64,000 nucleotides of DNA from contig CAZUKY010000003.1 in the NCBI GenBank assembly GCA_964621085.1, positions 8,290-72,289 of the forward strand, read 5' to 3'. A model generated the notes under the pieces. That model was given only the letters and a program-made list of their open reading frames with translations, was not told the origin of the DNA and did no database searches. Each line of letters begins with the position of its first letter. Within the stretch, counting starts at the first letter, position 1. The position numbers and the translations under genes are program-made. This document shows, one piece after another, positions 4,055-48,154 of this stretch. This DNA comes from an uncultured Gammaproteobacteria bacterium (lineage in GTDB: Bacteria; Patescibacteriota; Patescibacteriia; JACQRZ01).

Positions 4055-4112
4055 TACGGGCTCTGCCGCGTCGGAGTCTCGCGCGGAGGTCGGGCGATCT
4101 GCAGGTCGCCTC

Positions 4113-5440: not shown

Positions 5441-6445
5441 ATGGAAAAACGGCGGATTACAATTATTATTCCTGCATATAACGAAAAGAAGGGCATCGAG
5501 GCTGTTTGGCTGAGCGTTTCCGATGCTATTGCCCCACTCGAGCAACGCTATGCCTTCGAGATTCTTTTTGTCGATGACGGCAGTACGGATGGTACGGCGC
5601 AGGAACTCGAGTCGCTCACGGCGCGCGACGGCCGAGTCGACTTTCTTTCCTTTTCCCGGAATTTTGGAAAAGAGATCGCGACGACCGCGGGCCTCCATGC
5701 CGCAACGGGGGACGCGGCAATTATGCTGGATGCCGATTTGCAGCATCCGCCCGCGCTGATCCCCGAGTTTATCCGCAAATGGGAAGAGGGAGCGGAGATC
5801 GTCATCGGCTTGCGTACGAATGACGCCAGCCAGAGCGTGGTTCGCAAGCTGGGCGCGCGGTTTTTTTATGCCGCAATGGATCGGATAAGTGAAACCAGAC
5901 TTGATCGCGGCGGTACTGACTTCCGACTCTTGTCCCGTCCGGTCATCGACGCATTCAACTCATTTACCGAGCGCAGCAGAATCACGCGCGGTCTCGTCGA
6001 CTGGCTGGGATTCAAGCGGGCCTACGTTCCCTTTGCCGCGCCGGATCGCGCGGGCGAAAAGGGACGGTACGGCTTTCTTCGTCTTACCCACCTGGCACTT
6101 TCGAGCTTTGTGTCTCACAGCCTTTTTCCACTCAAATTCACTGGCTATCTCGGCGTTTTCATTTCAGTCGCATCGGGACTCCTCGGCGTTTTTATTCTCG
6201 TCGAAAAATATATTCTCGGCGATCCGTTGGGTCTTGATTTCTCCGGCCCGGCAATGCTCGCGGTTGTCATCATCTTTCTCGTCGGTATTATTCTTTCCTG
6301 TCTTGGCCTCATTGCCCTCTACATCGCAAACATCCACGCCGAGGTCATGAATCGGCCGCTGTATGTTGTTCGCAAACGCTCGCACCCTGTTCGCACTCCG
6401 GAAAATACGCCCTATGAAAATCCTCTGGTTCACATGGAAAGATAG
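5441..6445 (+). CDS. GT2-family polyprenyl-phosphate glycosyltransferase (GtrB/ArnC/DPM1-like)
   Basis: IIIPAYNE, DDGSTDGT and a DAD..H motif. Two C-terminal TM helices match the GtrB/ArnC architecture. Confidence 0.85.
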   Translation: MEKRRITIIIPAYNEKKGIEAVWLSVSDAIAPLEQRYAFEILFVDDGSTDGTAQELESLTARDGRVDFLSFSRNFGKEIATTAGLHAATGDAAIMLDADLQHPPALIPEFIRKWEEGAEIVIGLRTNDASQSVVRKLGARFFYAAMDRISETRLDRGGTDFRLLSRPVIDAFNSFTERSRITRGLVDWLGFKRAYVPFAAPDRAGEKGRYGFLRLTHLALSSFVSHSLFPLKFTGYLGVFISVASGLLGVFILVEKYILGDPLGLDFSGPAMLAVVIIFLVGIILSCLGLIALYIANIHAEVMNRPLYVVRKRSHPVRTPENTPYENPLVHMER

Positions 6446-7511
6446 AAAGAACCCGCTCGCGGGGGGTGCGGAAGTGGTCAATGAAGAGCTCGCACGCCGG
6501 TTAGCTGCCGACGGACACGAGATTATCTTTCTTGTGGCAGGTTTTCCTGAATGCGCAGAGCAAGAAACAGTGAGCGGCTATCGGGTCATTCGCGTCGGGT
6601 CCCGTTGGAGCGTCTACTGGAACGCATATCGCTATTACAAAAATCATTTGTGCGGATGGGCGGATCTGGTCATCGACGAAATGAACACGATGCCATTTTT
6701 TTGCAAGTTCTACGTGAAGGAGAAAAACATCCTCCTTGTCCACCAACTTTGCCGCGATATATGGTTTTACGAGATGCCGTTTCCGCTCAGTGTTTTGGGC
6801 TACGTAGCGGAATTTTTTTATGTGCGACTCTTGAACGACCGAAGGACGATAACGGTGTCGGAGAGCACAAAGAAAGATCTCGAACGATTCGGATTCCGCA
6901 ACATCCATGTCATTAGCGAGGGGATAGAGCTTGAGCCACTTGCAGATTTGAATGCAGTCCAAAAATACGACCAGCCGACGCTCCTCGCCCTCGGATATCT
7001 CCGCTCGATGAAGCGTACGCATCTGATTCTCGAGGTATTCGAAATAGCTAAATGCATACTGCCGAACCTTCAGCTGATAATCGCGGGAGACTTCGAAAAT
7101 TCATATGGCAGAAACGTGGCAAAAAAAGCAGCCGCATCGCCGTTCCGCGATTCAATCCGAATGCTTGGGAAAATATCAAAGGAAAAGAAAATCGAGCTTC
7201 TGCAAAAAAGCCACCTCCTTGTAGCAACACCCGTGAAAGAAGGCTGGGGTTTGACAGTTACGGAGGCGGCAAGCCAGGGGACACCGGCGGTCGTGTATGA
7301 TGTCGACGGCCTGCGCGACAGTGTGAGAGATGGCGAGACGGGTTTGATATGTAAAAGAAATACGCCGCAGGAAATGGCAGAGAATATAGCTGCATTATTG
7401 AAAAATAAAGAGAAATATGATTTCATGAGAAGAACGGCACTGAAATGGGCAGAAGGGATAACATTTAGAGAAGGATATAAGAATTTTATAAGCAATGTGG
7501 GTGCACTATGA
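6414..7511 (+). CDS. GT4-family (group 1) glycosyltransferase
   Basis: GT-B fold with the C-terminal [35 protein letters not shown] (E-x7-E-type motif). Start chosen at [10 protein letters not shown], overlapping the upstream gene by 32 nt. GC content drops in the last third of this gene. Confidence 0.8.
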
Positions 7512-8458
7512 AGCGTATTCTCGTCACTGGCGGTGCGGGTTTCTTAGGCTCGCATTTGTGTCGAAAATTGCTCCAACAAGGACATGAGGTTCTTTGCGTA
7601 GACAATTTTTTCACCGGGATAAAGTCAAATATAGAGGAGCTTCTTGACAATCATCGTTTCGAACTCCTTCGGCATGATATCACGCTTCCTCTTTTCGTTG
7701 AGGTTGATCAAATATATAACCTCGCCTGCCCCGCATCGCCGATTCATTATCAATTCGATCCGGTGCAAACAACAAAAACGTCCGTTCATGGGGCGATCAA
7801 TATGTTGGGACTCGCAAAACGGATCCATGCTACTATTCTGCAGGCATCTACATCTGAAGTATATGGCGATCCCGAGGTTCATCCTCAAACAGAGTCGTAC
7901 TGGGGTCGAGTGAATCCAATAGGTGTTCGTTCCTGCTACGATGAAGGGAAGCGATGCGCTGAAACCCTTTTCTTTGACTATTGGCGTCAACATTCGGTTG
8001 ATATACGAGTGATCCGGATCTTCAATACATATGGTCCCTACATGCATCCGAATGATGGGCGTGTAGTTTCGAATTTTATTGTTCAAGCGCTCCTCAATAA
8101 GGATATTACTCTTTATGGAGACGGCAGTCAGACGCGAAGTTTCCAGTACGTTGACGATCTAGTGGAAGGCATGATTACAATGATGAATAATACCGAGGGG
8201 TTTGTAGGGCCGGTCAATATTGGCAATCCAAGGGAATTTACAATAAAAGAATTGGCAGAGTTGGTGCTGCAATTGATCCCAGATAGCACTAGTAAGATCG
8301 TCTATTGCGAATTACCGAGCGATGATCCGAAGCAGCGACAGCCTAATATTTCACTTGCAGAAGAAAAGTTGCAGTGGCGGCCAAAGATCTCATTGGAGGA
8401 GGGTCTTAAAAAAACGATCGAGTATTTTCGAAATGTTCGATTGACAAATTTTTTGTAA
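7508..8458 (+). CDS. uxs: UDP-glucuronate decarboxylase (UDP-xylose synthase)
   Basis: Short-chain dehydrogenase/epimerase with [14 protein letters not shown] and a YDEGKR catalytic dyad. End-to-end similarity to UXS/ArnA-decarboxylase-type enzymes. Start overlaps the GT4 stop (ATGA). Confidence 0.88.
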
Positions 8459-8462
8459 GACA

Positions 8463-9257
8463 ATGTCTATGGATCCACTCGTTTCCGTCATTATTCCAAC
8501 GAGGAATTCGGCACGAACAATCGAAAAATGCCTCGCATCGATCCGAAACCAGAGTTATCAAAATATTGAATTAATTGTTGTAGACAACAATAGTGCTGAC
8601 AATACCAAAGAAATTGCTTCAAAGTATACCGATAAGGTTTTCAACCAAGGGCCGGAGCGGAGCGCACAAAGAAATTTTGGAGCAAGCAAAGCAAATGGAG
8701 CATACTTACTTATTCATGATAGCGATATTTATTTTGATGAAGATTCGGTTAAGGAATGCGTACAGCTCATGCAAATAGAAAAATGCCAAGCCCTTATTCT
8801 GCCGGAAAAATCAATTGGCACGGGCTTTTGGACAAAAGTCAAAGCATTTGAGCGGAGTTTTTATATAGGAAATGATTATATTGAGGCAGTAAGATTTTTT
8901 AATCGAGACTTCTTTTTTTCAATAGGAAAATACGACGAAACATTGACTGGTCCCGAAGATTGGGAACTGACTACACGAATAAGAAAGGCGGGTCATAAAG
9001 TTGGCCGAACGAAAAAAATATTGCTTCATGACGAGGGTCAACTGAATTTATTTGGTTCGTCAAAAAAGAAAAAATATTATGCCAAAGATATGTTTGAAAA
9101 GTATGCGCGAATGCATCCAGATTATTTCAAAAAACAAATGAATTTTTTTGTTCGTTTTCCTGTGCGCAAACTATTGATCAAAGGCGCTCGACATCCCATG
9201 TTATGCAGCGCCATGATCTTAATGAAGGGCATGGAATACATGAATGCAAGAAGGTAA
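8463..9257 (+). CDS. GT2-family glycosyltransferase
   Basis: VSVIIPTRNSARTIEKCLASI..ELIVVDNNSADNT and a DSD motif; GT-A fold. Confidence 0.8.
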   Translation: MSMDPLVSVIIPTRNSARTIEKCLASIRNQSYQNIELIVVDNNSADNTKEIASKYTDKVFNQGPERSAQRNFGASKANGAYLLIHDSDIYFDEDSVKECVQLMQIEKCQALILPEKSIGTGFWTKVKAFERSFYIGNDYIEAVRFFNRDFFFSIGKYDETLTGPEDWELTTRIRKAGHKVGRTKKILLHDEGQLNLFGSSKKKKYYAKDMFEKYARMHPDYFKKQMNFFVRFPVRKLLIKGARHPMLCSAMILMKGMEYMNARR

Positions 9258-9261
9258 TAAT

Positions 9262-9984
9262 ATGGATATAGAACAATATTCGGAAATAGCGCCTCAATAT
9301 TATAAAAACGTTGTCCCCTCACTATTAAGGAAATATTTAAAGGGCGTGAAGGGTATTTCGCTCCTTGACTGTGGTTGCGGGGACGGTTCTTTATTATATG
9401 CATTGAAGCGAAATGATTACTTTGAGGGGAATAAAATTTTTGCAATCGATCTCTCCAAAAAGAGAATCGAGCTTGTTCGGAGAATTGATCAAACAATACA
9501 TGCTGCGGTAGACAGCGCAGAATCCATTGAATCGATAGTGGACAATTCAATTGATTTTTTTATCTCTACGCAAGTGATAGAACATGTTGATCAAAAAAAG
9601 ATGCTTGCAAGTATCGACCGTGTGGTAAGGGGGAGAGGAAAAATTTATTTAGCCACAGTATTTAAAAAGTGGTATGGATGGTATTTCTATAAAAATCAAG
9701 AAGGGAAGTGGGTTATAGACCCTACACATGTGCGAGAGTATACGCACGACTCCCAACTATTCAGTGATATTGATTGGGATAAGTTTCGCCTGATCGAAAA
9801 CAGGAAGACACTCCTTTGGTTTCCAGTTATCGATTTTTTTATTAAGAGGACAGTTGTAAAAAATAGACGAATACTTGACACAGCATTCGGCAGATTTCTA
9901 CGAACATTTCAAGTGCCGATTATCGGATATTATAATTGGGAAATTATTCTCGAAAAAAATGAAATCATCAGTACTAAAGTTTAA
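9262..9984 (+). CDS. class I SAM-dependent methyltransferase
   Basis: SAM-binding motif LLDCGCGDGSLL with acidic residues downstream. AT-rich coding sequence. Confidence 0.7.
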   Translation: MDIEQYSEIAPQYYKNVVPSLLRKYLKGVKGISLLDCGCGDGSLLYALKRNDYFEGNKIFAIDLSKKRIELVRRIDQTIHAAVDSAESIESIVDNSIDFFISTQVIEHVDQKKMLASIDRVVRGRGKIYLATVFKKWYGWYFYKNQEGKWVIDPTHVREYTHDSQLFSDIDWDKFRLIENRKTLLWFPVIDFFIKRTVVKNRRILDTAFGRFLRTFQVPIIGYYNWEIILEKNEIISTKV

Positions 9985-10039
9985 TACTACCCTTAGTGGT
10001 TGAATGTAGTCATTTTCATTTCTCACACGCTTTTCATTT

Positions 10040-11098
10040 ATGAAATCAGTTGTTTTTTATGAGCCGGGTAAATTTTTAGTGGAAGACAAGCCAATTCCAC
10101 CTGTAAAGGATGGCGAAGTGCTGCTAAAGGTTATATCGTGCGGTCTTTGCGGCACGGATTTAAAAATTTTCACGCATGGGCACCACGCGATCAAGCCACC
10201 CATTACTACTGGTCATGAGATAGTCGGTCAAGTTGTTGAATCGAAGTCGGACGATAAAAAAATTAAAGTCGGCGATAATGTTATTGTTGTTACTCCCGTA
10301 GGTTGCATGAAATGCAAGTATTGCTGGCAAAATAAACAAAATATGTGTCCCTGGGTCGCCAATGAAGTTCATTCCATTGGTTATTATTGTGATGGAGGCT
10401 TTGCGGAATATGTTGTAATCCCCAAAGAAGCGGTTGATCAAAAGGTCTTGATACATATTCCCGAGTCAGTTATAAAAATTGAAGATTTTGCCTTATGCGA
10501 ACCCTTGTCTTGCGTCATTAATGGACAGGATAAATTAAGGATTACACCCGAAGATACTGTAACAGTCATTGGGGCGGGGCCGATAGGTTGTATGCATGTT
10601 TTCTTGTCCCGCGCAAAAGGAGTGAAAAAGATCATTTTAGCCGACATTTCTAAAAATAAATTGGAGCTTGCGCGAAAGAATAACATTCCGGCAGATTTTT
10701 TTGTCGACTCCACCCAGACTAATCTAGTTGATTTTGTGCTTGAAGAAACTGGCGCGGCAGGATCGGACGTTACTATTGTTGCTGCACCTTCGGGAAAGGC
10801 ACAGGAGGATGCGGTTCAGCTCACCGCTATATTAGGAAGAATCTCCTTTTTTGCAGGATTACCGAAAAATAGTCCATCAATAAATTTTCCCAGCAACATT
10901 CTTCATTATCGCGAACAGGAATTATATGGCGCTTTTGCATCCAACCGTAAAAACTATGAGCAAGCCTTGTCATTGATTCTTAATGGTCAAATAGATGCTG
11001 AAAAGCTCGTTACCCATTACTTACCGCTAGAAAAAATACATGAGGCAGCTCATTTAGCGAAGACAGAGCATGCAATTAAAATTATTATCGTCCCTTAA
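10040..11098 (+). CDS. zinc-dependent MDR alcohol/polyol dehydrogenase (sorbitol/threonine dehydrogenase-like)
   Basis: CGLCGTDL, GHE, structural-zinc cysteines (CMKCKYC) and a GAGPIG Rossmann motif. Confidence 0.85.
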   Translation: MKSVVFYEPGKFLVEDKPIPPVKDGEVLLKVISCGLCGTDLKIFTHGHHAIKPPITTGHEIVGQVVESKSDDKKIKVGDNVIVVTPVGCMKCKYCWQNKQNMCPWVANEVHSIGYYCDGGFAEYVVIPKEAVDQKVLIHIPESVIKIEDFALCEPLSCVINGQDKLRITPEDTVTVIGAGPIGCMHVFLSRAKGVKKIILADISKNKLELARKNNIPADFFVDSTQTNLVDFVLEETGAAGSDVTIVAAPSGKAQEDAVQLTAILGRISFFAGLPKNSPSINFPSNILHYREQELYGAFASNRKNYEQALSLILNGQIDAEKLVTHYLPLEKIHEAAHLAKTEHAIKIIIVP

Positions 11099-11099
11099 G

Positions 11100-12155
11100 A
11101 TGTTAAAGTTGCCTATCACAGCTAAAGAATATTACTTAATCGAGCCCGGTGAATTTCAGGAAAAACAGAGTAATATTGAAGCGATACCATACGACCATAC
11201 CGTGCTTTCTCCTCTGGCGACAGCCATATGCGCTTCTGATTTGCAATATTATTATGGTGAAAAATCGCCAGAGAAATTGGCCAAGCGACTGCCTCTTATT
11301 TTATTGCATGAAGGCGTTTGTTTTGACCATTTGACGGGTATGCGAGTAGTGCCTGTGGCAGGTGATTTTCATAAAGTTCCGACAGAGTTCATAAATAAAG
11401 AAAATTTATGGCCAGATCTTCCCTATATGGGCGCGACTATGCATGGATTGGCAAGATCGCATCTACTTTATCCCAAAGACTTATTAATTCCCGCACCCGT
11501 CGGATTACCGGATGAAATAGCGTGTCTGACCGAGCCGGTCTCTATCGTTTTTAAGGCTGCGAAAGATATGAACTTAAAATTCACCGATCGAGTAGCTATT
11601 ATAGGAACCGGCGGCATTGCCTATTTATTGGCTCTAGTATTACGTTTTTATTATAATTTTCCTTTAGATAAGATTTCTATTTTCGGAATCAATAATTCTA
11701 AACTCAAATACTTTAAGGGATTGGCAGGAATGTATAATTACCAAGATGAAGAAAATCTAGATGATTTCAATGCAAAATTTGATGCGGTTTTTGAAGTTGT
11801 TGGCAGGAATAAAATTAAAGAAACAATAAAATTGGCATTCAATTTAATAAAACCAGGCGGCAAAATCGGAGTTATCGGACTTTCTGATCTGGATATGGAT
11901 TTACCTTCAAATAAATTAGTTAATCAGGGAATTTCCGTTGTGGGATTAAGTCGTTCCACTTTTATAGAATATCAGTTGGCGTTGAATTTTTTAAATCAAG
12001 AAGTGGTTCAACAATTAATCAAAGAAAAGATGGTAAACAAAAAATTATTTTTGATTGATTCAATTCATAAAATCAAAGAAGCTTTTGAATTCGCCAAACA
12101 GCCGGAACATTACGGCCGGATAATGTTAAAATGGCCGACGAATGTGAGTACGTAG
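11100..12155 (+). CDS. MDR-superfamily dehydrogenase-like protein (divergent)
   Basis: ICASDL, HEG and IGTGGIAYL Rossmann-like motifs. Immediately follows the Zn-ADH gene. Confidence 0.6.
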   Translation: MLKLPITAKEYYLIEPGEFQEKQSNIEAIPYDHTVLSPLATAICASDLQYYYGEKSPEKLAKRLPLILLHEGVCFDHLTGMRVVPVAGDFHKVPTEFINKENLWPDLPYMGATMHGLARSHLLYPKDLLIPAPVGLPDEIACLTEPVSIVFKAAKDMNLKFTDRVAIIGTGGIAYLLALVLRFYYNFPLDKISIFGINNSKLKYFKGLAGMYNYQDEENLDDFNAKFDAVFEVVGRNKIKETIKLAFNLIKPGGKIGVIGLSDLDMDLPSNKLVNQGISVVGLSRSTFIEYQLALNFLNQEVVQQLIKEKMVNKKLFLIDSIHKIKEAFEFAKQPEHYGRIMLKWPTNVST

Positions 12156-12180
12156 TATAACCAATCTTCATTATTTAAGT

Positions 12181-12504
12181 ATGAAAAAATTTTACCAAAG
12201 AGACATGGTGGGAGGATGGTTTGTCGGGAATTTTGAGCCGAGCGCGTTTAAAACCGCCAGCGCGGAAGTATGTTATAAGATTCACCCGAAGGGTGAAAAA
12301 TGGGACAAGCACTATCATCGGATAGCCACAGAAATCAATTTGATGGTGAGGGGGAAAATATCCATAAACGGCGAAATATTTAAACCTGGCGAAATATTTT
12401 TGATAGAACCAAATGAAATTGTCTCACCGGAATTTTTAGAAGATTGCGAATTGGTAGTTGTAAAAGTGCCGTCGGTTTCCGGCGATAAATACGTAGTTGA
12501 GTAA
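12181..12504 (+). CDS. cupin-domain protein
   Basis: 107 aa beta-barrel pattern (H..H..E..G, EIFLIEPNE) consistent with a cupin-2 fold. Confidence 0.55.
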   Translation: MKKFYQRDMVGGWFVGNFEPSAFKTASAEVCYKIHPKGEKWDKHYHRIATEINLMVRGKISINGEIFKPGEIFLIEPNEIVSPEFLEDCELVVVKVPSVSGDKYVVE

Positions 12505-12506
12505 AA

Positions 12507-13280
12507 ATGAATATGGAAATTTTTGCTCACCGCGGCTTGTTGAACGATTTTCCGGAAAATAGTTTAACGTCTCTGATCGGGGCATTCAAAGAAGGCTTTG
12601 GGATCGAGTTTGATCTGCGACTGACCAAAGATAACGACTTTATTATTATTCATGATGATAATTTTCAGCGGTTGACCGGGCAGGATATCGATGTTAAAAA
12701 CTTGACTTTGTCTCAGGTGAGAGAAATAAATTATATAAACTCCCAAGAAAAAATTATTTCCCTGGGAACATTATTGGAGGCGGTCAGGCTCGGTGATTTT
12801 AAAAAAAAATTGGCAATTCATTTAAAGGCTGACAGTCAAACAGAAGAAGGACTTGGCCTTTTGGCAAAATATATTCGGGAATTTAATTTATATGATCAGG
12901 CTTTTGCTTTCGATTTGACCCTGGAAAGCGCTAAGCTGTTGCGGCAAATTGATAAGAAAATTAAGACAGCTTTAATTGTTTCTGAATATAGGTTCGAACC
13001 GACAATTTTCCTTTGGGAAGAAGTTAAGCAGAAAGATTTTGACATTGTCTGGATGGCGGAATGGCGTAAATTTTATAGCTATGAATTAATTAATGAAATG
13101 AAGAGTGATGGCAAAATTGTTTATGCGATGTCACCGGATGTTCATAGGAGCCTTGGCCATCCTTTGGCTCGGGAAGGATTCGAAGAAACATGGAGAACAT
13201 TGATCGACTGGAATGTTGACGGTATTTGTACAGACCAACCTAAAAAATTAAGCTTATATTGTTCTCACGCAATAGTATGA
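12507..13280 (+). CDS. glycerophosphodiester phosphodiesterase (GDPD) family protein
   Basis: N-terminal FAHRG..ENS and EFDL motifs (GDPD catalytic His/Glu). Confidence 0.75.
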   Translation: MNMEIFAHRGLLNDFPENSLTSLIGAFKEGFGIEFDLRLTKDNDFIIIHDDNFQRLTGQDIDVKNLTLSQVREINYINSQEKIISLGTLLEAVRLGDFKKKLAIHLKADSQTEEGLGLLAKYIREFNLYDQAFAFDLTLESAKLLRQIDKKIKTALIVSEYRFEPTIFLWEEVKQKDFDIVWMAEWRKFYSYELINEMKSDGKIVYAMSPDVHRSLGHPLAREGFEETWRTLIDWNVDGICTDQPKKLSLYCSHAIV

Positions 13281-14014
13281 AAATCGTGGTACCAATGGCC
13301 GGGCGCGGGTCCAGATTTGCCAAAGCAGGCGTTACCGCCCCGAAACCTTTAATTGAAGTAAAGGGCAAGCCGATGATCCAATGGGCGATTGAAAGCATCA
13401 AGCTCATTTATCCTGACGCCAAAGACAACGATTTCATTTTTATCTGTCTTCAAGAACACGAGGATAATTACCAAATTGGAAATAAACTAAAAATGCTCGT
13501 CGGTCCGAATATTAATCTGATATATATTAATGAGGTGACCGATGGTGCTGCGTGTACAGTCTTAAAAGCCAAAGATTTAATAAACAATGAAGAAGACATG
13601 CTCACTTGTGATTGTGACCAGTTTTTTCGTTGTCCCCAATTCATTTCCTATCGCCAGCAAGCTTTGGAAAATAATTGGGGAGGGTTGATTCCAACGTCGG
13701 AAAAAAGCAGCCCCGCGTATTCATACATCCGGCTGGATGAAAAAGGCGATGCCGTAGAAACGGCGGAAAAAAAGCAAATTTCAACTCATGCGGCTATTGG
13801 CATTTACTACTTTACTCAAGGCCGAAAATTCGTTGCAGCGGCGGAAACAATGATTGAAAAAAATAAGCGAATTAATAATGAATTTTATCTGTGTCCCGTT
13901 TATAATGAGCTTATTGCGGAAAAAGAAATAGTTAAAATCGTACCCACTGATTTGTGGATGACCTTAGGGACACCTGATGAGGCAAAATATTTTGCGGAGA
14001 ACGTTCCGCAGTAA
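13277..14014 (+). CDS. sugar/alditol-phosphate nucleotidyltransferase (GT-A-like NTP-transferase fold)
   Basis: N-terminal KIVVPMAGRGSRF..KPL nucleotide-binding loop. ATGA overlap with the GDPD gene. Confidence 0.65.
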   Translation: MKIVVPMAGRGSRFAKAGVTAPKPLIEVKGKPMIQWAIESIKLIYPDAKDNDFIFICLQEHEDNYQIGNKLKMLVGPNINLIYINEVTDGAACTVLKAKDLINNEEDMLTCDCDQFFRCPQFISYRQQALENNWGGLIPTSEKSSPAYSYIRLDEKGDAVETAEKKQISTHAAIGIYYFTQGRKFVAAAETMIEKNKRINNEFYLCPVYNELIAEKEIVKIVPTDLWMTLGTPDEAKYFAENVPQ

Positions 14015-14029
14015 TTTCCTATATTTTTT

Positions 14030-15073
14030 ATGAGTGATGATCAGAAAAAGTTTTATCCAAAAGCGACGGTGATTACTTTGAATTATAACGGCAAGCATTT
14101 TTTGGAAAAGCATTACCAGACGCTTTTAAGTCAGACCTACCCAAATGCTAATTTTCTTTTTGTGGAGAACGGTTCAGTAGACGGATCGGAAGAGTTTGTC
14201 AGGGAAAATTTTCCCCAGGTCAAGATAGTTAAGATTGAAAAGAATGTCGGGCCGGTGATGGGCTATAACACCGGCGGATTTTCCGTTCAGGATTCAAAAT
14301 ACCTGGTTTTTATCGGTAACGACACTTGGCTGGATAGAGACTGGCTGAAAGAAATGATTGCCGTTGCCGAGAATGATGAAAATATCGCAATTTGTGGCGC
14401 GAGACAGATGAATTATGACGGAACTGTGGAAATGCACTGCGGCGGAGTAGGGCTGGATGTGCTCGGATATCCGACCGTGCCGAAAGACAAGATGAGCGAT
14501 TATTTTTACGTGGATGGCGTGAGTCTCCTAATCCGCAAAGATATTTTTCAGAAATTGGGGGGGTTTGACGGACGGTATTTTGTTTTTGCTGAAGAGGTGG
14601 ATTTGGCGTGGCGGGCTAGATTACTTGGCTATACTATTGCTATTGCCCCCAAAAGTGTTTTTTATCATGCACTCGGCGGCACCATCGGGAAATCCGGCTT
14701 GGATAAAAAAAAGGCTGGATCAAAAGAGCCTTATATAATGAGTGTGAACAAACGCTATTACGCAGAAAAAAACACATTGTGTACGATCTTAAAGAATTAC
14801 TCACTCACTCCTTTAGTGATAATATTACCGCTCTTTTTTCTGTTCAACCTTGCTGAAGCGATATATTTTTTGTTAACTGGCCACGTCAAGGCGGCGCTTG
14901 TCTATCCGCGCGCATGGTGGTGGAATTTAATGAATGGTAAGGAAACCTTTTTGCGCCGGCGTGAAGTTCAAAAGTCGCGAGTGGTTTCCGACAAGACAAT
15001 CGTATCTTTAATGTATAAAGGCTACGGCAAATTGAGGTCATTAAAAATAGTCGGAATGCCGAATGTTGAATAA
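14030..15073 (+). CDS. GT2-family glycosyltransferase
   Basis: TVITLNYNG, ENGSVDGS, a GNDTW motif, and a C-terminal hydrophobic region. Confidence 0.8.
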   Translation: MSDDQKKFYPKATVITLNYNGKHFLEKHYQTLLSQTYPNANFLFVENGSVDGSEEFVRENFPQVKIVKIEKNVGPVMGYNTGGFSVQDSKYLVFIGNDTWLDRDWLKEMIAVAENDENIAICGARQMNYDGTVEMHCGGVGLDVLGYPTVPKDKMSDYFYVDGVSLLIRKDIFQKLGGFDGRYFVFAEEVDLAWRARLLGYTIAIAPKSVFYHALGGTIGKSGLDKKKAGSKEPYIMSVNKRYYAEKNTLCTILKNYSLTPLVIILPLFFLFNLAEAIYFLLTGHVKAALVYPRAWWWNLMNGKETFLRRREVQKSRVVSDKTIVSLMYKGYGKLRSLKIVGMPNVE

Positions 15074-15074
15074 T

Positions 15075-15758
15075 ATGAAAATCGATCAAATAATTCTAGA
15101 CCAACAATCCAGATATTACGATACCAACTTTCGCATTGTCAGTAATAATCCCCGATTTAAAAAAGTTTGGAACTACATTATAAAAAATAATTTGAAAGGC
15201 AATTTATTAGATATTGGTTGCTGCAATGGAGAGTTTTGTCAACCGTTAATAGATCGTGGCGGCTATACGTGTTATGGCATGGATTCGGTATCGACTGAAT
15301 TATCTGAGGCACAAAAAAGAGGAGTTATCGTAACTCATGGAAGTTTTTTAGAGGAGTTTCCATACGAAGATAATTTTTTTGATATTATTTTTGCCGGGGA
15401 AGTAATCGAGCATACGATTGATGATAATATATTTTTGCGAGAATGTTCTCGTATAATGAAAAAAGGCGGTACTTTAATTTTAACTACCCCAAATTTAGTT
15501 TCATTGGGCAATCGTTTATTAATGTCTCTGGGTTTTTTGCCGCGCTTTGCCTATAATGAATTTCATTATCGAATTTATAATTTACGATTGCTAAAAAACA
15601 AGTTAAAAGCAGCAGGTTTTGAGGCAAAAAAAATAAGTTCCAGTCATGTTTTGATTTCGACAGTTTTCAATAAATATATTGGCATGATAGGGGAGTCATT
15701 AGGTGGACTGTTCCCGACACTTGGGGAGCAGTTTATTATTTTTGCGAAGAAAAAATGA
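15075..15758 (+). CDS. class I SAM-dependent methyltransferase
   Basis: LLDIGCCNGEF SAM motif followed by a Methyltransf_11-like core (IIFAGEVIEH). Confidence 0.7.
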   Translation: MKIDQIILDQQSRYYDTNFRIVSNNPRFKKVWNYIIKNNLKGNLLDIGCCNGEFCQPLIDRGGYTCYGMDSVSTELSEAQKRGVIVTHGSFLEEFPYEDNFFDIIFAGEVIEHTIDDNIFLRECSRIMKKGGTLILTTPNLVSLGNRLLMSLGFLPRFAYNEFHYRIYNLRLLKNKLKAAGFEAKKISSSHVLISTVFNKYIGMIGESLGGLFPTLGEQFIIFAKKK

Positions 15759-17953
15759 AATATTCTCTATTCATTTTGATAACTTTACTGGCCATCGGAA
15801 TCGCAACTCACTGGCAGTGGTTTTTTACGTTTGACCTCCTCACCGCAAAAGATTTCGGTTTTTGGTTAAATGAAACCGCTCGAGAATTTTTAAATTTTCC
15901 ATTAAGTTGGTGGAGTAAAGATGGGTTAGGTTGGACATATGACGTCCCTTCTGTTTACCCGTTCGTACTGTTATATGGAATTTTTGCTCACTTTAACGTA
16001 GAGTATGCAATTTATGAAAGGCTTATATTTGCGTGGCCGATCGTTATTGCTGGATCATTAGGTTCTTATTTACTTTTAAAAAAAATTTTACAATCTCCAG
16101 CCGGTATTTTGACCGGATATTTGGTATACAATTTCAATACATTTTTTTTGATCTTACAAACTAGTCATTGGACATTAGCGGCTACATATGCAGTTCTTCC
16201 GTTATACTTGTATTTATTTATTGATGCTTTAGAGAAAAAAAGTTGGTATTTGGGAATTCTTACTGGATTAGTTGGTTTTATAATTAGTTTTTTTGAATTT
16301 AGGCTTTTCTATCTCAGCATTTGGATTTTCTTATTTTATTTTTTGATAAATTATTTATTGAGAAATGCAAAAAATATTTTTTTTCAAATGAAAAGAATAT
16401 TAATGATGCTGATGGTATTTTTCATAGTTATCAGTTTGAACGCCTATTGGCTAATCAACTATATATACGGCAGCGGTCTAAAAGATGCGGTATTTTTGCA
16501 AAGAGGTTTGTGGGGCAACAGCTTTTTTAATTTGAGTGAATCTTTCACCTTGTTCCACCCATTCTGGACAGGCACTAACCCCTTAGATTTTGTAGTTCAA
16601 CCTATTCCTATATTTTTTTGGCTCATACCGATTTTTGCTTTCTTGGGCTTGATTACGAATATCAAAAACAGAACCATTCTTTTTTTTGGTTTAATAAGTC
16701 TCATAGGGATTCTTTTGTCAAAACAGGTGGCAAATCCGTGGCCGGATTTGTATCCTTGGCTTTTCGATCATTTTCCAGGATTTAATGCTTTTCGTGAGGC
16801 AAGCAAATTTTATTTGTTTACAGCCTTAGGATACAGTGTTTTAATCGGATCCTTTGTTGCTTGGCTCTGGAAAAATTGGAATGATACTAAATGGAAGGTT
16901 GCCGGGAAGTATGCGTTTACTATTTTAATTGTCGCAATTTTTTTGTGGAACTCAAAGCCCCTTGTTACGAGTGAAATCAGGACATTATTTGTACCTCGGC
17001 ATATTCCGAATGATTATCTTATTTTGAAAAATTTCATATTGCAGCAGCCGGGTTTCTTTAGAACTTTCTGGACTCCAAGAGAGTCGCGGTGGGCGATATA
17101 CACAAACGAAAAGCCAAAGATTGGCAATGTGGCGCTTGTTACTTTCGAATGGAAAGAGTTCGTTGCTTATAGTCAGCATGACGATCAATGGCCAGTTAAA
17201 AATCAAATTGTTGATATATTTAATAAAGAATTTTCCGATCAGTTATTTGATGTTTCTTCTATTAAATACATTATTCTTCCTATTCAAGATAATGCGAATG
17301 AAGATGATTTCTTTTATCATTACGGTGGAGTGGAAGATCCTGCCATCCGAGATTTCTATCTTCAAAAACTTGATGCAGCCCCTTTCTTAAAGCGGATTGA
17401 TATTGGCACGAAAGAATTGCTTGTTTACGAAAACGAAAACCATCGTCCTCATATATACACTACAGCTCAACTGGAAACAATTACTCAAGATATTCCCTTT
17501 ACGCAATCTGAACATTCACAAGTCAATTCAACACAGTATAGTGTTATATTAAAAAATATTTCACAACCGATATATATTAATTTTTCCGAAAGCTTCCATC
17601 CTGACTGGAAACTCCGCGTTGGTGATTTCAATTGGTATGATGTATTCAATAAAAATTACTTCCTCCCCGATGACTTCCACGTCAAAAACGACGCGATGTT
17701 AAATTCCTTCAAGATTGACCCTGACTATATTCGGACGCACTACCCACCGTCTGTCTATACAATCAACACCGATGGCAGTATTGATCTCGAACTGACGCTC
17801 TATTTCAAACCACAATCGTATTTTTATCTCGGTCTTATTATTAGTGTGACGACACTGATTGGATGCCTGCTCTGTCTAGTTTTTTTCTCCTTTCGCAGCG
17901 TGAGGGAAAAAATGCAGCAAAAGAAGCTCTTATCAGTACAAGGCAAGGTATGA
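15755..17953 (+). CDS. polytopic membrane protein, putative GT-C-fold glycosyltransferase/polymerase (AT-rich copy)
   Basis: 732 aa with about 12-14 N-terminal TM helices, a large extracytoplasmic C-terminal domain and a final TM anchor. Paralogous to the next gene (shared FREASKFY / MREPQKWV block). ATGA overlaps on both sides. Confidence 0.6.
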   Translation: MKYSLFILITLLAIGIATHWQWFFTFDLLTAKDFGFWLNETAREFLNFPLSWWSKDGLGWTYDVPSVYPFVLLYGIFAHFNVEYAIYERLIFAWPIVIAGSLGSYLLLKKILQSPAGILTGYLVYNFNTFFLILQTSHWTLAATYAVLPLYLYLFIDALEKKSWYLGILTGLVGFIISFFEFRLFYLSIWIFLFYFLINYLLRNAKNIFFQMKRILMMLMVFFIVISLNAYWLINYIYGSGLKDAVFLQRGLWGNSFFNLSESFTLFHPFWTGTNPLDFVVQPIPIFFWLIPIFAFLGLITNIKNRTILFFGLISLIGILLSKQVANPWPDLYPWLFDHFPGFNAFREASKFYLFTALGYSVLIGSFVAWLWKNWNDTKWKVAGKYAFTILIVAIFLWNSKPLVTSEIRTLFVPRHIPNDYLILKNFILQQPGFFRTFWTPRESRWAIYTNEKPKIGNVALVTFEWKEFVAYSQHDDQWPVKNQIVDIFNKEFSDQLFDVSSIKYIILPIQDNANEDDFFYHYGGVEDPAIRDFYLQKLDAAPFLKRIDIGTKELLVYENENHRPHIYTTAQLETITQDIPFTQSEHSQVNSTQYSVILKNISQPIYINFSESFHPDWKLRVGDFNWYDVFNKNYFLPDDFHVKNDAMLNSFKIDPDYIRTHYPPSVYTINTDGSIDLELTLYFKPQSYFYLGLIISVTTLIGCLLCLVFFSFRSVREKMQQKKLLSVQGKV

Positions 17954-19596
17954 GAGATAGATTTTTTCAAATAGGTATTAACTCTTTGCCGATTCTCACC
18001 ATTGTCGGTCCGTTGTTTGCGGTACCGGGTTATATTTTTTTGACCGACTTGGCATGGGGAGCACATATGCCTGTCGATTGGACGAACACCTGGTTCATGT
18101 TGGGACTCATTGCTCAAGGGCTTGGCATGGTACTGCCGCCAGACATTGTTCAGAAGCTCTATATTACTCTTTGCCTCGGGATCGCATTGTGGGGCGGACG
18201 CAAGGTCGCTTCACAGTTTCTTGTTGATTGGTGGCTCATCTGGATTGTGGGACTTTTTGCACTCTTTAATCCCTTTGTCTATGATCGCGCGATGTACGGG
18301 CAATTCGGCGTTATCATGGCCATGGGGTTGATGCTTGCAGGGGCCGGATTCCTTCTCGAATATATCCGCGAGCAGCGGTTGAGAAGTGTGGTTGCGGGCG
18401 GCATCTGTTTTGCTTTTGCAATCCAGTCATCGCCGCACTTCCTGTTTTTTATTGCGAGTATTGGACTTGCCGCTATTCCTCTCATACTCAGTCGTGTTGA
18501 AAACTGGAAAACGGGGTTGATCTCTTTGGCGAAGGCCTCGGCAGTTATCGTTGGTTTGACTCTCGTACTGAATGTAAATTGGATCGCTGCAGGAGTCATA
18601 GGTATCTCGGGTGCCGGAGATTTGGTAGGCGATGGTATTACAAAGCTGGATCTGGCCGCATTTCAAACATCAGGCAAGGATACGGGCGAGGTAGTAGCGA
18701 ATGTGGCGATGATGTCGGGATTTTGGGGTAAAGACCAGTTCCGCTATCGCGATCTGACGACGGTCGAGGGGAATTGGGGGCGCAGCTTTCTTCTCCTTGT
18801 TCCGCTGATGCTCTGGGGTTTGGTTGCGGCATTGAGAAGGGGAGGGCGCGAGCGGACGCTTGCGATTTCGCTCAGCATTCTATTTATTATTGCCCTCGTA
18901 TTGGCAGCGGGCATCCGTATTCCAATTGGCAAGGAAGTGACGCACTTCCTCTTTGATAATCTTCCTTTGTATAAAGGCATGCGCGAGCCCCAGAAATGGG
19001 TGAGCGTTATCGTGCTTGCGTATCTCGTCTTCCTTTCTTGGGGGATCAAGGAATTTTTTGCGCGCACGGTGATCGCACGCAATGACGCCATTATGAAAGC
19101 GATCATTGCCGGTGTTATCGTTATGCAGGCGCCATTTCTCCTTTTCGGCTTTGCCGGCCAAGCAAAGCCGACTCCGTATCCACAGGACTGGCATGAGGCA
19201 AATGAATTTATCTCGAATGAGTCGCAGTGTGCGGGCAGCATTCTTTTCTTGCCATGGCATAATTATATGAGTTTTTCATGGACGAATGGCATCGTCGCCA
19301 ATCCGGCCAATATGTTTTTCGACTGCCCAGTAATTCAGGGGAGCAACATGGAGTGGGCGGGTATTTACGATAATAGCAAGAACGCGACAAGTGCTGCGGT
19401 TGTCGCGTGGCTCCATGGCGGCAAGACGGACCTGCTGCGGAATGAAACGTTCAATATTCGGTATGTTATCCTTGCCAAGGAGCTGGATTGGAAGATGTAT
19501 CAGGGGATTGCGCTGCATCCCGATTTGGAGTTTGCAAAAGAGACGGAAACGCTTATCGTGTATCGAGTGAAGAAAGAGCGCGGCATAGCACAATAA
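17950..19596 (+). CDS. polytopic membrane protein, putative GT-C-fold glycosyltransferase/polymerase (GC-rich copy)
   Basis: Same architecture as the preceding gene but GC-rich. Start at MRDRFFQ overlaps the upstream stop (ATGA). Confidence 0.6.
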   Translation: MRDRFFQIGINSLPILTIVGPLFAVPGYIFLTDLAWGAHMPVDWTNTWFMLGLIAQGLGMVLPPDIVQKLYITLCLGIALWGGRKVASQFLVDWWLIWIVGLFALFNPFVYDRAMYGQFGVIMAMGLMLAGAGFLLEYIREQRLRSVVAGGICFAFAIQSSPHFLFFIASIGLAAIPLILSRVENWKTGLISLAKASAVIVGLTLVLNVNWIAAGVIGISGAGDLVGDGITKLDLAAFQTSGKDTGEVVANVAMMSGFWGKDQFRYRDLTTVEGNWGRSFLLLVPLMLWGLVAALRRGGRERTLAISLSILFIIALVLAAGIRIPIGKEVTHFLFDNLPLYKGMREPQKWVSVIVLAYLVFLSWGIKEFFARTVIARNDAIMKAIIAGVIVMQAPFLLFGFAGQAKPTPYPQDWHEANEFISNESQCAGSILFLPWHNYMSFSWTNGIVANPANMFFDCPVIQGSNMEWAGIYDNSKNATSAAVVAWLHGGKTDLLRNETFNIRYVILAKELDWKMYQGIALHPDLEFAKETETLIVYRVKKERGIAQ

Positions 19597-22448: not shown

Positions 22449-22470
22449 GAAGCGAGTTGCAGAATACGCA

Positions 22471-22505
22471 AAAGATCCCTCTTCCCGAGGGATCTTTTCT
22501 TTTTC
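22471..22505 (+). terminator. rho-independent terminator
   Basis: aaagatccctc-ttcc-gagggatcttt hairpin followed by a T-run, just after the surface-protein stop. Confidence 0.7.
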
Positions 22506-45882: not shown

Positions 45883-45953
45883 GCCAGAGCAATATTGATT
45901 ACTGAGCTCCGCTATAATGAGAAAGACAGCGGAGTTATTCAAAATATTTATAT

Positions 45954-46025
45954 TCCGGGGTAGCTCAGCGGCAGAGCAGTGGACTGTTAATCCATTGGTC
46001 GTGGGTTCGAATCCCACCCCCGGAG
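45954..46025 (+). tRNA. tRNA-Asn (anticodon GTT); CCA not encoded
   Basis: Manual fold: acceptor tccgggg/ccccgga; anticodon stem gtgga/tccat with loop ctGTTaa; T-arm gtgggttcgaatcccac. Confidence 0.85.
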
Positions 46026-46357
46026 GAGAGTAGGTCGTTACGAACTCACGTACCGACCTATTTTCGTTTTGGAAATAAAACAAAATTCACTTTCAAAGGC
46101 ATTGCAAAATATTCTCAAGTGGCAACATTTTATAACTTTGTGAGCATACATGCTCTGGGTTCGAGTCCCACTCGGTACCGGGATCAGAGAGGTCCTTAAC
46201 ATCTTCATTTCGTCCTGTGGCGCGGCTGGCAGCCGATCGATCAAAGTTACGCTATCAGTCAGACGAGTTTGAGTGAGTGGGGTAGTAATTGAGAGTTGCT
46301 TTATGAGTTTATGTGCTGTAAAATCAGTTGGAATTGTAAGAAGCTGTGTAAATATGT

Positions 46358-47859: not shown

Positions 47860-48154
47860 ATACTCCCGAACCTATCCATTACTGGAACGCGGTGATAAAC
47901 ACCACAATTCGGTCCGAGAGCAATTCCATACTTAGTATAGACGCTCCAGAAGAAAAATCAATACAAACTCTCTCTTTTTATTTAAAATATAAGCATTTTA
48001 GCTATTTTACCATTGACAAACACAGCAATTTATGGTATGCTTGGTTGACGTTCTTTCGAAGAAGTCCTGGCTTTTTTTCGGCTATAAAGCTTAATTTTAG
48101 GTCGAAAGAAGGCTAGGACAGGATTCTAGTCACAGCAAAGAAGGAGGTTTTCAG

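Follow-up and report, generated by a model that had tools for sequence, protein, structure and literature searches.

What is made by a block of AT-rich genes set inside an otherwise GC-rich glycan locus, and how did it come to lie there? The question is raised by a stretch of 64,000 nucleotides, here called the window, from contig CAZUKY010000003.1 (positions 8,290 to 72,289, forward strand; assembly GCA_964621085.1), deposited under the name of an uncultured Gammaproteobacteria bacterium and placed by GTDB among the Patescibacteriota. Positions 7508-17953 of the window hold 11 co-directional, tightly packed open reading frames (ORFs) on the + strand, as are the flanking genes described below. 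In order they encode a UDP-glucuronate decarboxylase (UXS), a family-2 glycosyltransferase (GT2a), an S-adenosylmethionine (SAM)-dependent methyltransferase (MT1), two medium-chain dehydrogenases/reductases (MDR1 and a TarJ-like reductase), a small cupin, a GDPD-family phosphodiesterase, a nucleotidyltransferase (NTb), a second family-2 glycosyltransferase (GT2b), a second methyltransferase (MT2) and a polytopic membrane protein (mem1). All the domain assignments made in a preliminary description of this DNA were verified with Pfam and NCBIfam, that of a GT-C-like membrane protein by way of a predicted structure and Foldseek. With moderate confidence, the block is read here as a laterally acquired cassette that adds a decoration branch to a xylose-containing glycan through a supply of xylose, a five-gene precursor module and enzymes of transfer and tailoring. 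This reading is built on observed gene families, catalytic motifs, folds, synteny and composition. The type of pathway, in which a nucleotide-activated alditol or ketose side group is encoded in a glycan locus, is known; the enzyme set is unstudied biochemically.

Base composition sets the block apart from its surroundings. A sliding GC profile shows a trough at ~7-18 kb with values of 0.34-0.46, against 0.50-0.60 elsewhere in the window. In 1-kb segments, the block has a mean GC of 0.384 (maximum 0.443) and the rest of the window a mean of 0.544 (standard deviation 0.036; minimum 0.469 after leaving out a second small islet at 46-48 kb), so that the ranges do not overlap (z = -4.4). GC at third codon positions (GC3) is 0.30-0.48 in the 11 block genes and 0.54-0.77 in the flanking and host genes. 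The Jensen-Shannon divergence from pooled host codon usage is 0.095-0.236 for block genes and 0.025-0.078 for host genes, every block gene lying farther from the pool than any host gene; the host reference for both composition and codon usage is this 64-kb window alone. The low-GC block recognised in the preliminary description is thus borne out by GC, GC3 and codon usage alike, its values falling outside the range of the rest of the window. The position and the close co-directional packing reported there at 7350-17950 also stand, while the count of ten genes becomes 11.

The genes are closely joined, and this extends across both borders. ATGA stop/start overlaps occur between a glycosyltransferase gene upstream (GT4) and UXS, between GDPD and NTb, between MT2 and mem1, and between mem1 and a second membrane protein gene downstream (mem2), the last at 17950-17953. 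Both block borders are therefore ATGA overlaps with host genes. Elsewhere, gaps are short (1 nt between MDR1 and the TarJ-like gene, 2 nt between cupin and GDPD, 4 nt between UXS and GT2a) or the genes overlap by more (14 nt for GT2a/MT1, 11 nt for GT2b/MT2). Acquisition of the block as a cassette, as the preliminary description had proposed, is supported by its composition, its codon usage and the GC of the loci in which its relatives are found, mostly in bacteria of the candidate phyla radiation (CPR); these loci have a GC of 0.34-0.46, which matches the block. Neither an integrase-like domain nor flanking direct repeats mark the borders, and the nearest 12 kb hold no tRNA. Together with the ATGA junctions at both ends, this makes the event look like a recombinational cassette exchange inside an operon, of the kind seen in O-antigen and capsule loci.

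The low GC could instead mark an old resident allele of a hypervariable surface-glycan locus, a matter of timing more than a true alternative to transfer. Loci of this type often retain a deviant composition over long times, for instance where diversifying selection goes with frequent exchange of cassettes within a lineage. The lack of integrase, tRNA and direct repeats and the in-frame operon junctions are compatible with such an allele, and on the 5' side GC declines across GT4 and UXS, a gradual change that fits either amelioration or a breakpoint of long standing. It is also common for O-antigen and capsule loci to be low in GC (general knowledge; PMC11641403). On the 3' side, however, GC jumps sharply within ~200 nt, GC3 differs by ~0.25-0.3 from that of neighbours in the same operon, and the composition shared with the relatives' loci goes with a gene set that is a unique mosaic. 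Long residence is thus quite unlikely.

The precursor module occupies positions 10040-14014, and its most constant part is formed by the GDPD and NTb genes. The GDPD-family phosphodiesterase (12507..13280) matches PF03009 over its full length (E 6e-25; 89.1 bits against a cut-off of 23.6; profile positions 1-243 of 244), with all NCBIfam equivalog models far under their cut-offs (42 bits against 264). Its HRG, PENS, ExD and HD motifs, which we take to be the catalytic and metal-binding motifs, are invariant in five orthologues. The protein is probably cytoplasmic, because it has no signal-peptide-like hydrophobic segment at its N-terminus. Orthologues 45-59% identical to it adjoin NTb in the comparison loci labelled here L001, L002, L003, L005, L009, L010, L012, L031, L032 and L041.

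NTb (13277..14014) belongs to the RmlA superfamily of nucleotidyltransferases (PF00483, E 3.5e-13) and carries the GxGxR...K signature as PMAGRGSRF-x8-PKPLI, kept in all NTb orthologues. Its only close solved relative is 4EVW, a 'nucleoside-diphosphate-sugar pyrophosphorylase' of V. cholerae RC9 from structural genomics, which is matched at E 7e-14 by the single sequence and at E 3e-37, over the full length, by the family profile. Being uncharacterised, 4EVW does not inform the substrate specificity of NTb. Next to 4EVW, the family profile finds sugar-1-phosphate nucleotidyltransferases (ST0452, GMPP, RmlA) at ~1e-10 to 1e-8, and no IspD, TarI or LicC entry of the PDB below 1e-5; the IspD match of NTb is a 60-residue N-terminal fragment at E 5e-4. 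The profile search rules out an IspD-, TarI-, LicC- or IPCT-like enzyme, and with it the kinship to TarI, IspD or Bcs1 that the preliminary description had put up for checking. There is no IspD-family cytidylyltransferase elsewhere in the window either, the PF00483/4EVW-like protein being the only nucleotidyltransferase among the ORFs scanned (at 1-22.5 kb those of 100 aa or longer, elsewhere in the window those of 180 aa or longer; the same scope applies to the scans for other families below). NTb has 7768 homologues at E<1e-10, many of them named 'glycosyltransferase family 2 protein' by NCBI. These names, with the size and description of IPR016873 ('BcbE, predicted', 241 aa, annotated 'bcbE-like (GT2)'; PMC11641403), make it probable that NTb belongs to the BcbE family.

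Synteny of the module is seen in ~10 other loci, mostly of CPR bacteria. In L001, L002, L003, L005/6, L009, L010 and L012, orthologues of MDR1, the TarJ-like gene, GDPD and NTb lie side by side, at 42-62% identity. In the loci with a TarJ-like gene, all of them glycan clusters, the GDPD is 45-57% and the nucleotidyltransferase 45-55% identical to that of the window, and GDPD and NTb are adjacent also in L031, L032 and L041, all of which are without a TarJ-like gene. All these loci are rich in glycosyltransferases, sugar epimerases and dehydratases, aminotransferases and methyltransferases; the module is therefore a glycan-biosynthesis module. The neighbourhood comparison suggested in the preliminary description thus places the homologues of the nucleotidyltransferase and the dehydrogenases side by side in glycan loci and not in unrelated contexts. 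It also shifts the emphasis, for the pair that is invariant across loci is GDPD and nucleotidyltransferase, and not dehydrogenase and nucleotidyltransferase, the core that had been put forward.

The system is modular, with GDPD and NTb as the constant pair and with MDR1, the TarJ-like reductase, the cupin, sugar-phosphate isomerases and NTa, a paralogous gene of nucleotidyltransferase fold, as interchangeable add-ons. The closest relatives of NTb sit in loci without a TarJ-like gene. In L031, where the nucleotidyltransferase is 67% identical, the order is methyltransferase, MDR1, NTa, GDPD, NTb. L032, with a nucleotidyltransferase 65% identical, has a RuBisCO-like protein, a cupin (62%), one intervening gene, GDPD (59%) and NTb. 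In L041 (Liptonbacteria), a PGI/PMI gene is followed by MDR1, a 314-aa protein of unknown function, NTa, a 2H-phosphoesterase-like gene on the opposite strand, GDPD and NTb, and then by a 285-aa conserved protein of unknown function, a GatZ/KbaZ-like gene and a MannoseP_isomer cupin. Other enzymes of ketose-phosphate metabolism near the module include RuBisCO-like proteins (L032-L036), a DHBP synthase (L034) and a transketolase (L040). The combination of MDR1, TarJ-like reductase, cupin, GDPD and NTb was not seen in any other locus examined. The cassette is thus a unique mosaic, with MDR1 and the TarJ-like gene as in loci of the Roizmanbacteria/Amesbacteria type and cupin, GDPD and nucleotidyltransferase as in L032.

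Two further observations concern the neighbours of the module in other genomes. A protein of 283-285 aa without a Pfam family follows NTb in L002 (14077-14934), L032 (8735-9586) and L041 (6777-7634); it is 49-57% identical between these three CPR loci, is absent from the window and is a candidate for a missing transferase or partner of the module. Proteins of the RuBisCO-large family (401-409 aa) adjoin a cupin and an NTb-like nucleotidyltransferase in L032 (4390-5995), L033 (5058-7321) and L034-L036. This arrangement occurs in three unrelated glycan-type loci and suggests that the RuBisCO-like protein acts on a pentulose-phosphate in a glycan precursor pathway.

Two dehydrogenases open the module. 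The TarJ-like reductase (11100..12155, following the public gene call, in an ORF that opens at 11070) matches the S. aureus ribulose-5-phosphate reductase structures 6XH9/6XHK at E 8.5e-29 over residues 20-355, the next PDB entry standing at 4e-10. Its CxxD, HEG and TE motifs align with those of TarJ: C54 (AICASD), H80-E81 (LLHEG) and E155 (LTEP), presumably zinc ligands as in other MDR enzymes, are invariant in the six-member TarJ-like clade. The clade is small, with 7 close homologues in 5.8e9 proteins. Only 5 of 185,579 species-representative genomes have the gene (Ca. Roizmanbacteria, Ca. Amesbacteria and three metagenome-assembled genomes (MAGs) labelled 'uncultured Gammaproteobacteria'), and the next match is at 27% identity. 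Of the two dehydrogenases that the preliminary description wished to see compared with TarJ, it is thus the second that proves to be a specific TarJ relative, with the catalytic Cys, His-Glu and Glu kept, and its sequence makes it a candidate ketose-phosphate reductase.

MDR1 (10040..11098) is a zinc-dependent enzyme of the polyol/ketose-reductase/threonine-dehydrogenase group, with ADH_N and ADH_zinc_N domains, a GHE motif and a four-Cys structural-zinc motif. It matches 4EJ6, threonine dehydrogenase, the ketose reductase 1E3J and sorbitol dehydrogenase in the PDB (E 7e-39 to 1e-29), and orthologues 51-62% identical occur in L001, L002, L003, L005, L009, L010, L012, L031 and L041. Its best NCBIfam families, scyllo-inosose 3-dehydrogenase, threonine dehydrogenase and idonate dehydrogenase, are catabolic, although all are far under their cut-offs, and GDPDs too are classically catabolic enzymes. 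It might then be asked whether the dehydrogenases, the cupin and the GDPD are catabolic or salvage enzymes, for the use of polyols and ketoses or the recycling of phospholipid head groups, that lie beside glycan genes, the block being a mixed bag. This is highly improbable. At least 10 independent loci have these four or five genes next to one another in one direction, often with overlaps, and there the module is always among glycosyltransferases or enzymes that modify nucleoside diphosphate (NDP)-sugars and never among transporters or kinases. In the window, the junctions inside the module are ATGA overlaps or gaps of 1-2 nt, the ORFs scanned include no sugar kinase, and the block itself has no sugar transporter or regulator.

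The fifth member of the module is a small metal-binding cupin of 107 aa (12181..12504; the public gene call starts from M9 at 12205). Weak in Pfam, it belongs to a conserved family with 205 homologues, which are 54-70% identical among the 120 listed, and in which an HxH(x)4E(x)6G metal-binding motif and H35 are invariant. Its AlphaFold2 (AF2) model (pLDDT 96.8) has as top Foldseek matches the minimal phosphomannose isomerases (PMI) of Thermococcus, 7ZVM/7ZVY (E 3e-6, TM-score 0.64, 22-25% identity), with KdgF, DddQ and quercetinase close behind. The sequence profile of the family matches 7ZVM/7ZVY at E 3e-4, quercetinase scoring slightly better. The protein is accordingly graded here as a candidate isomerase of aldose and ketose phosphates.

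The cupin occupies the slot in which related loci hold NTa. NTa is 25-34% identical to NTb and is present in every relative that has a TarJ-like gene (L001 11008-11739, L002 11004-11768, L003 11041-11760, L005 2683-3402). Its nucleotide-binding motif is degenerate (LAGKNPQF, LAADATDF), and it may serve as a partner without catalysis of its own, an arrangement comparable to GalF/GalU or GMPPA/GMPPB. No copy or remnant of NTa is found anywhere in the window, which is the only TarJ-like case without it. The cupin was considered as a pseudogene remnant of NTa and rejected: the window holds no similarity to NTa, and the cupin forms a conserved family of its own.

Taken together, the module would work as follows. 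The PMI-like cupin would interconvert the aldose and ketose forms of a sugar phosphate. With NAD(P)H, the TarJ-like reductase and MDR1 would turn the ketose-phosphate, free or nucleotide-linked, into an alditol-phosphate, and NTb would join the phosphate ester to a nucleoside monophosphate, so that the donor is an NDP-alditol or NDP-ketose. The GDPD, acting in the cytoplasm, would most likely make or reshape the phosphate ester for NTb. Its substrate would be a phosphodiester, namely a glycerophosphodiester obtained by scavenging or an intermediate that is cyclic or a diester; product editing is less likely.

Several points weigh against this scheme. We infer the order of the steps, the substrates, the nucleotide and the role of the GDPD, and to our knowledge such a role for a GDPD is without precedent in nucleotide-sugar synthesis. 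Identity to TarJ is only ~27-30%, which does not assure specificity for ribulose-5-phosphate (Ru5P). The connection of NTb with BcbE is annotation-based, a lead. In the absence of NTa, the pathway of the window may differ from that of its relatives or be incomplete. No TagF or LicD is found in the window ORFs scanned, and family-2 glycosyltransferases normally move glycosyl groups and not alditol-phosphates, which favours an NDP-sugar or NDP-ketose over an NDP-alditol. The homology to TarJ, for its part, argues for an alditol stage.

A scheme closer to teichoic acid synthesis would take that homology at face value. Ru5P would be reduced to ribitol-5-phosphate by the TarJ-like enzyme, the GDPD would provide sn-glycerol-3-phosphate from scavenged glycerophosphodiesters, the single nucleotidyltransferase would act as a cytidylyltransferase and make CDP-ribitol, CDP-glycerol or both, and the polyol-phosphate would be appended to the glycan and methylated. 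Besides the TarJ homology, the intact catalytic residues of the GDPD and its lack of a signal peptide are in favour of this. RmlA-fold nucleotidyltransferases that activate small phosphate esters exist (LicC, IPCT and Gtp2), and a supply of glycerophosphodiesters could come from the lipid scavenging generally assumed for CPR bacteria. Side groups of this sort are common, as can be seen in pneumococcal cps loci with their pathways for CDP-2-glycerol, arabinitol and mannitol (PMC1391919). Nevertheless, the nucleotidyltransferase is not of the IspD/TarI or TagD type and beyond 4EVW resembles only sugar-1-phosphate enzymes. Searches of the scanned window ORFs with Pfam and NCBIfam found no TagF/TarL, LicD, TagD or other known polyol-phosphate transferase, and this, with the sugar-1-phosphate-like nucleotidyltransferase, argues against the classical scheme. 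It would also leave unexplained the PMI-like cupin, MDR1 and the hexose- and ketose-phosphate enzymes that recur beside the module in relatives. The scheme is rather unlikely. Of the CDP-ribitol or CDP-glycerol logic of TarJ and TarI advanced in the preliminary description, the reductase is thus upheld, but neither a TarI-type nucleotidyltransferase nor a known polyol-phosphate transferase is present among the ORFs scanned. Its broader suggestion of an activated polyol or sugar-phosphate decoration is reasonable; the context points less to ribitol or glycerol in particular than to ketose-phosphate and alditol chemistry at large.

The probable kinship of NTb with BcbE points towards a different product, a fructose-type ketose donor in place of an alditol. 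Here, the BcbE-like nucleotidyltransferase and the phosphodiesterase would attach a nucleotide to a ketose at its anomeric carbon, the adjacent family-2 glycosyltransferase would add the ketose as a side branch, and the MDRs and the cupin would do no more than adjust configuration, for example by epimerisation through an alditol or keto intermediate. Mutants of P. multocida in bcbE and bcbG lose their fructose branch (PMC13552107), and kfoE is required for the fructose branch of E. coli K4. In P. multocida types B and E, BcbE/F/G include an NT-fold protein of ~240 aa, annotated as GT2 or BcbE-like, that is needed, along with partner proteins, for the ketose side chain. NTb itself resembles sugar-1-phosphate nucleotidyltransferases and is followed by a GT2, a glycosyl transferase, in several loci; PMI-like cupins and PGI/PMI and GatZ/KbaZ-like neighbours handle substrates of the fructose-6-phosphate or tagatose-6-phosphate type; and no nucleotide-activated fructose donor is described in the literature searched. 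The likeness of NTb to BcbE comes from annotation, however, and not from direct alignment, and the BcbE/F/G and kfoE loci, unlike the window, encode ABC-transporter (group 2) capsules of Proteobacteria. A DNA search from a Scandinavium plasmid copy into E. coli genomes, as a bridge to the Kfo genes, gave no match. The only activity known for the TarJ family is a reduction that yields an alditol-phosphate, and two reductase-type MDRs are hard to explain if the end product stays a ketose. As a whole, this scheme is unlikely.

The preferred scheme, in which reductases and NTb jointly yield an activated alditol or ketose, can be set against the characterised routes. CDP-ribitol is made by TarI/J, and CDP-glucitol and CDP-mannitol by HS5.18/17 and Mnp1/2, all of them combinations of a nucleotidyltransferase and a reductase (PMC10918830). 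In cytidylyltransferase-first routes, an IspD-type enzyme is followed by a short-chain dehydrogenase/reductase (SDR) to give CDP-glucitol, CDP-mannitol or CDP-arabinitol (PMC10918830; PMC1391919). As with TarJ/TarI of S. aureus and S. pneumoniae and Bcs1 of H. influenzae, the window has a zinc-dependent TarJ-homologous MDR a few genes from a nucleotidyltransferase in a surface-glycan locus, and shares the logic of ketose-phosphate reduction followed by nucleotidylation. Unlike them, it has an RmlA-superfamily, 4EVW-like nucleotidyltransferase in place of an IspD-type one and no TarL/TagF polymerase or transferase, while the Tar pathway has no counterparts of GDPD, MDR1 and the cupin. The C. 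jejuni enzymes HS5.18/HS5.17 (CDP-6-D-glucitol), Mnp1/Mnp2 and AbpA/AbpB lead in two steps from fructose-6-phosphate or xylulose-5-phosphate to an activated alditol for capsule side groups. They too are encoded in a glycan locus, and there nucleotidylation can come before reduction (PMC10918830). They differ in using an IspD-family enzyme (PF01128) with an SDR (PF01370), where the window has a PF00483 nucleotidyltransferase, MDRs, a phosphodiesterase and a cupin. None of these CDP-alditol pathways has a PF00483-type nucleotidyltransferase, a GDPD or a cupin. In the literature searched, nothing directly relevant was found on clusters of GDPD, nucleotidyltransferase and reductase, on RuBisCO-like proteins with a nucleotidyltransferase and a cupin, or on teichoic acids of CPR bacteria.

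The constancy of the GDPD-NTb pair allows a bolder thought, which is decidedly unlikely to be correct as it stands: that GDPD and BcbE-like nucleotidyltransferases form an unrecognised route to nucleotide-activated ketose or alditol donors, in which a phosphodiesterase, and not a kinase or mutase, yields the phosphate ester. For example, a ketose-6- or ketose-5-phosphate might be nucleotidylated and cyclised, the GDPD might open the cyclic phosphodiester regiospecifically to the anomeric ketose-2-phosphate, and a second nucleotidylation might follow; the PMI-like cupin, the MDR reductases and, in most relatives, NTa may assist. If true, this route would supply the missing donor for fructose-type branches in P. 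multocida B/E, E. coli K4 and H. influenzae e, and for residues akin to them. The GDPD/nucleotidyltransferase gene set spans CPR bacteria, DPANN archaea, proteobacterial plasmids and cyanophages.

Related gene sets occur well beyond the CPR. Proteobacterial plasmids, a cyanomyophage and an Uhrbacteria genome (L037-L040, L042, L043) have a cupin 44% identical to that of the window and sharing its HxH..E motif, together with two or three BcbE-like genes of nucleotidyltransferase fold and with a gene for a phosphodiesterase, for a HAD phosphatase or for both; a WavE-family gene is often present too. L038, on the P. aeruginosa PA83 IncP plasmid NZ_CP017294.1 (114.8-123.3 kb), encodes nucleotidyltransferase, phosphodiesterase, HAD phosphatase, nucleotidyltransferase and cupin, with a WavE-family gene downstream; in L039, Synechococcus phage Bellamy, genes 206-209 comprise a cupin with NTb-like genes. 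Carriers of related sets include Azospirillum, Scandinavium, Acetobacter and the Uhrbacteria genome, and all members are annotated as hypothetical or as 'glycosyltransferase family 2 protein'. Three loci, L009, L010 and L011 (CAZMJG010000062.1, CAZPYR010000044.1 and CAZNUT010000001.1), come from third-party-annotation (TPA) MAGs titled 'uncultured Gammaproteobacteria bacterium'. They carry the five-gene module at low GC (0.39-0.40) as in Roizmanbacteria and Amesbacteria, and the taxonomic label looks doubtful.

The remaining genes of the cassette concern the glycan to which the decoration would be added. UXS (7508..8458), the first low-GC gene (GC3 0.44), matches human UXS1 (4GLL/2B69) at E 2e-122, the next SDR class among its PDB matches appearing only at 5e-36. 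Human UXS had served as the molecular-replacement model for the structure of HS5.17, a CDP-6-fructose reductase (PMC10918830). An HS5.17-like role as CDP-ketose reductase was considered for the window protein and is ruled out by the strength of its match to UXS1. Upstream lies Ugd, a UDP-glucose 6-dehydrogenase (2741..4054), with three UDPG_MGDP_dh Pfam domains (E 1e-55 to 2e-32) and a GC3 of 0.65. On strong homology, the host Ugd and the cassette UXS would together supply UDP-xylose, in agreement with the xylose-containing surface glycan of the preliminary description.

For transfer and tailoring, the cassette encodes two glycosyltransferases, two methyltransferases and mem1. GT2a (8463..9257; PF00535, E 9.5e-27) is a soluble enzyme 44% identical to a GT2 of the Amesbacteria locus L012 and 42% identical to one of L031. 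GT2b (14030..15073; PF00535, E 6e-19) lies directly 3' of NTb and is 49% identical to an equally placed GT2 in L005. A GT2 gene follows NTb also in L001, L003 and L031, and GT2b is a candidate user of the activated product, the likeliest one to transfer it. MT1 (9244..9984; Methyltransf_11/25/31) and MT2 (15063..15758; Methyltransf_11/23; 35% identical to a gene of L012) are class-I SAM methyltransferases. In the proposed pathway, GT2b and GT2a would transfer residues in the cytoplasm, and MT1 and MT2 would O-methylate them.

The last low-GC gene, mem1 (15755..17953), encodes a protein of 732 aa with ~11 transmembrane (TM) helices, an extracytoplasmic domain of ~300 aa and a C-terminal TM anchor. 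It has no Pfam match, and among 44 relatives there are 1 weak PMT_2 and 1 PTPS_related match. Its AF2 model (pLDDT 92.4, pTM 0.89) finds GT-C enzymes in all of the top 26 Foldseek matches in the PDB, first AftD (6W98; E 3.5e-8, TM-score 0.51) and after it STT3/PglB, ALG12, AftA, ArnT and Emb. The family has 695 representatives at E<1e-30, and Asp33, in a consensus GDW just past TM1 in the first extracytoplasmic loop, is invariant in the 44 members. An assignment to YfhO or PMT by sequence was tried and not retained, Pfam giving no match and hhalign to a YfhO protein a probability of 25%; it is structure prediction that gives the GT-C fold. At the level of the model, mem1 is confirmed as a GT-C fold glycosyltransferase closest to AftD. 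Upstream of the block lies a GT2 with two C-terminal TM helices (5441..6445; PF00535, E 7e-31; TM residues 236-254 and 273-291; host GC), whose architecture is that of a GtrB/ArnC/DPM1-like polyprenyl-phosphate sugar synthase and which is the likely supplier of donors to the GT-C enzymes. Its functional pairing with the GT-C enzymes is one we infer: fed by it, the AftD-like protein would add a polyprenyl-phosphate-linked sugar outside the membrane. This arm of the cassette recalls the Arn pathway (Ugd-ArnA-ArnC-ArnT) and mycobacterial AftD/Emb, where matching parts are found: Ugd with an enzyme that decarboxylates UDP-GlcA, a GT2 with TM helices at its C-terminus and a GT-C transferase. The likeness holds for this one arm only; unlike those systems, the window has no aminotransferase or formyltransferase steps, and its GT-C protein belongs to no Pfam family.

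Other flanking genes fit a locus of this kind. A Wzx-type polysaccharide flippase (3981..5399; PF01943 Polysacc_synt, E 7e-7; ~11 hydrophobic segments) has host GC, and the GT4 glycosyltransferase (6414..7511; PF00534/PF13439), whose stop overlaps the UXS start at the 5' junction, has an intermediate GC of 0.48. At the 3' junction, mem2 (17950..19596; GC 0.50, as in the host; ~10 hydrophobic segments), whose ATG overlaps the mem1 stop, has no Pfam match. It shares with mem1 the stretch F-D/H-x-x-P-x-[FY]-x-x-x-R-E-x-x-K-[FW] (HFPGFNAFREASKFY vs NLPLYKGMREPQKWV). Homology between the two was considered and is not established, the hhalign probability being only 4.6%. Possibly, mem2 is a second GT-C-like enzyme, and it may be the resident GT-C beside which that of the cassette was placed.

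The co-directional gene string ends with a probable secreted protein of 603 aa (20637-22498) that has a hydrophobic segment at its N-terminus, the repeat (GY)6, stretches rich in Thr and Ser and a weak match to fn3. It is followed by a terminator-like hairpin with a 12-bp stem (22470-22498), the sole strong one of the region. Promoter-like sites in the region are not commoner than in shuffled sequences, and Rfam and tRNA scans found nothing within the block. Farther away, a second low-GC patch (45953-47921; 0.39-0.41) begins directly behind the gene for tRNA-Asn(GTT), which lies at 45953-46026. Its two protein products are a TIR-domain protein of the CAP12/Pycsar type (46358-47224; E 1e-37) and a DUF3800 protein (47221-47859); the patch ends at a DUF3800-IX RNA motif of Rfam on the minus strand (47858-47921; 48.5 bits) and looks like a small tRNA-adjacent defence islet. 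All window proteins found by exact look-up, including the large and small subunits of ribonucleotide reductase, SufS and Sua5, form singleton clusters at 90% identity; the host is without a close sequenced relative in the protein collection.

In itself, the window holds an unremarkable cassette of horizontal gene transfer, and a clean case of an in-frame cassette swap in a glycan operon without mobile-element machinery. The module of GDPD, BcbE-like nucleotidyltransferase and cupin that it carries is widespread and unannotated. Thousands of genes that bear the name 'glycosyltransferase family 2 protein' seem to encode nucleotidyltransferases, accompanied by a small cupin and by either a phosphodiesterase or a HAD phosphatase. 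With BcbE genetically tied to fructose branches, the module may bear on how bacteria activate ketoses or unusual alditols. The surfaces of CPR bacteria, or Patescibacteria, are almost unknown chemically, yet mediate their episymbiotic lifestyle; from the cassette, a methylated glycan that contains xylose and is decorated with an alditol or ketose can be predicted, together with concrete candidate enzymes.

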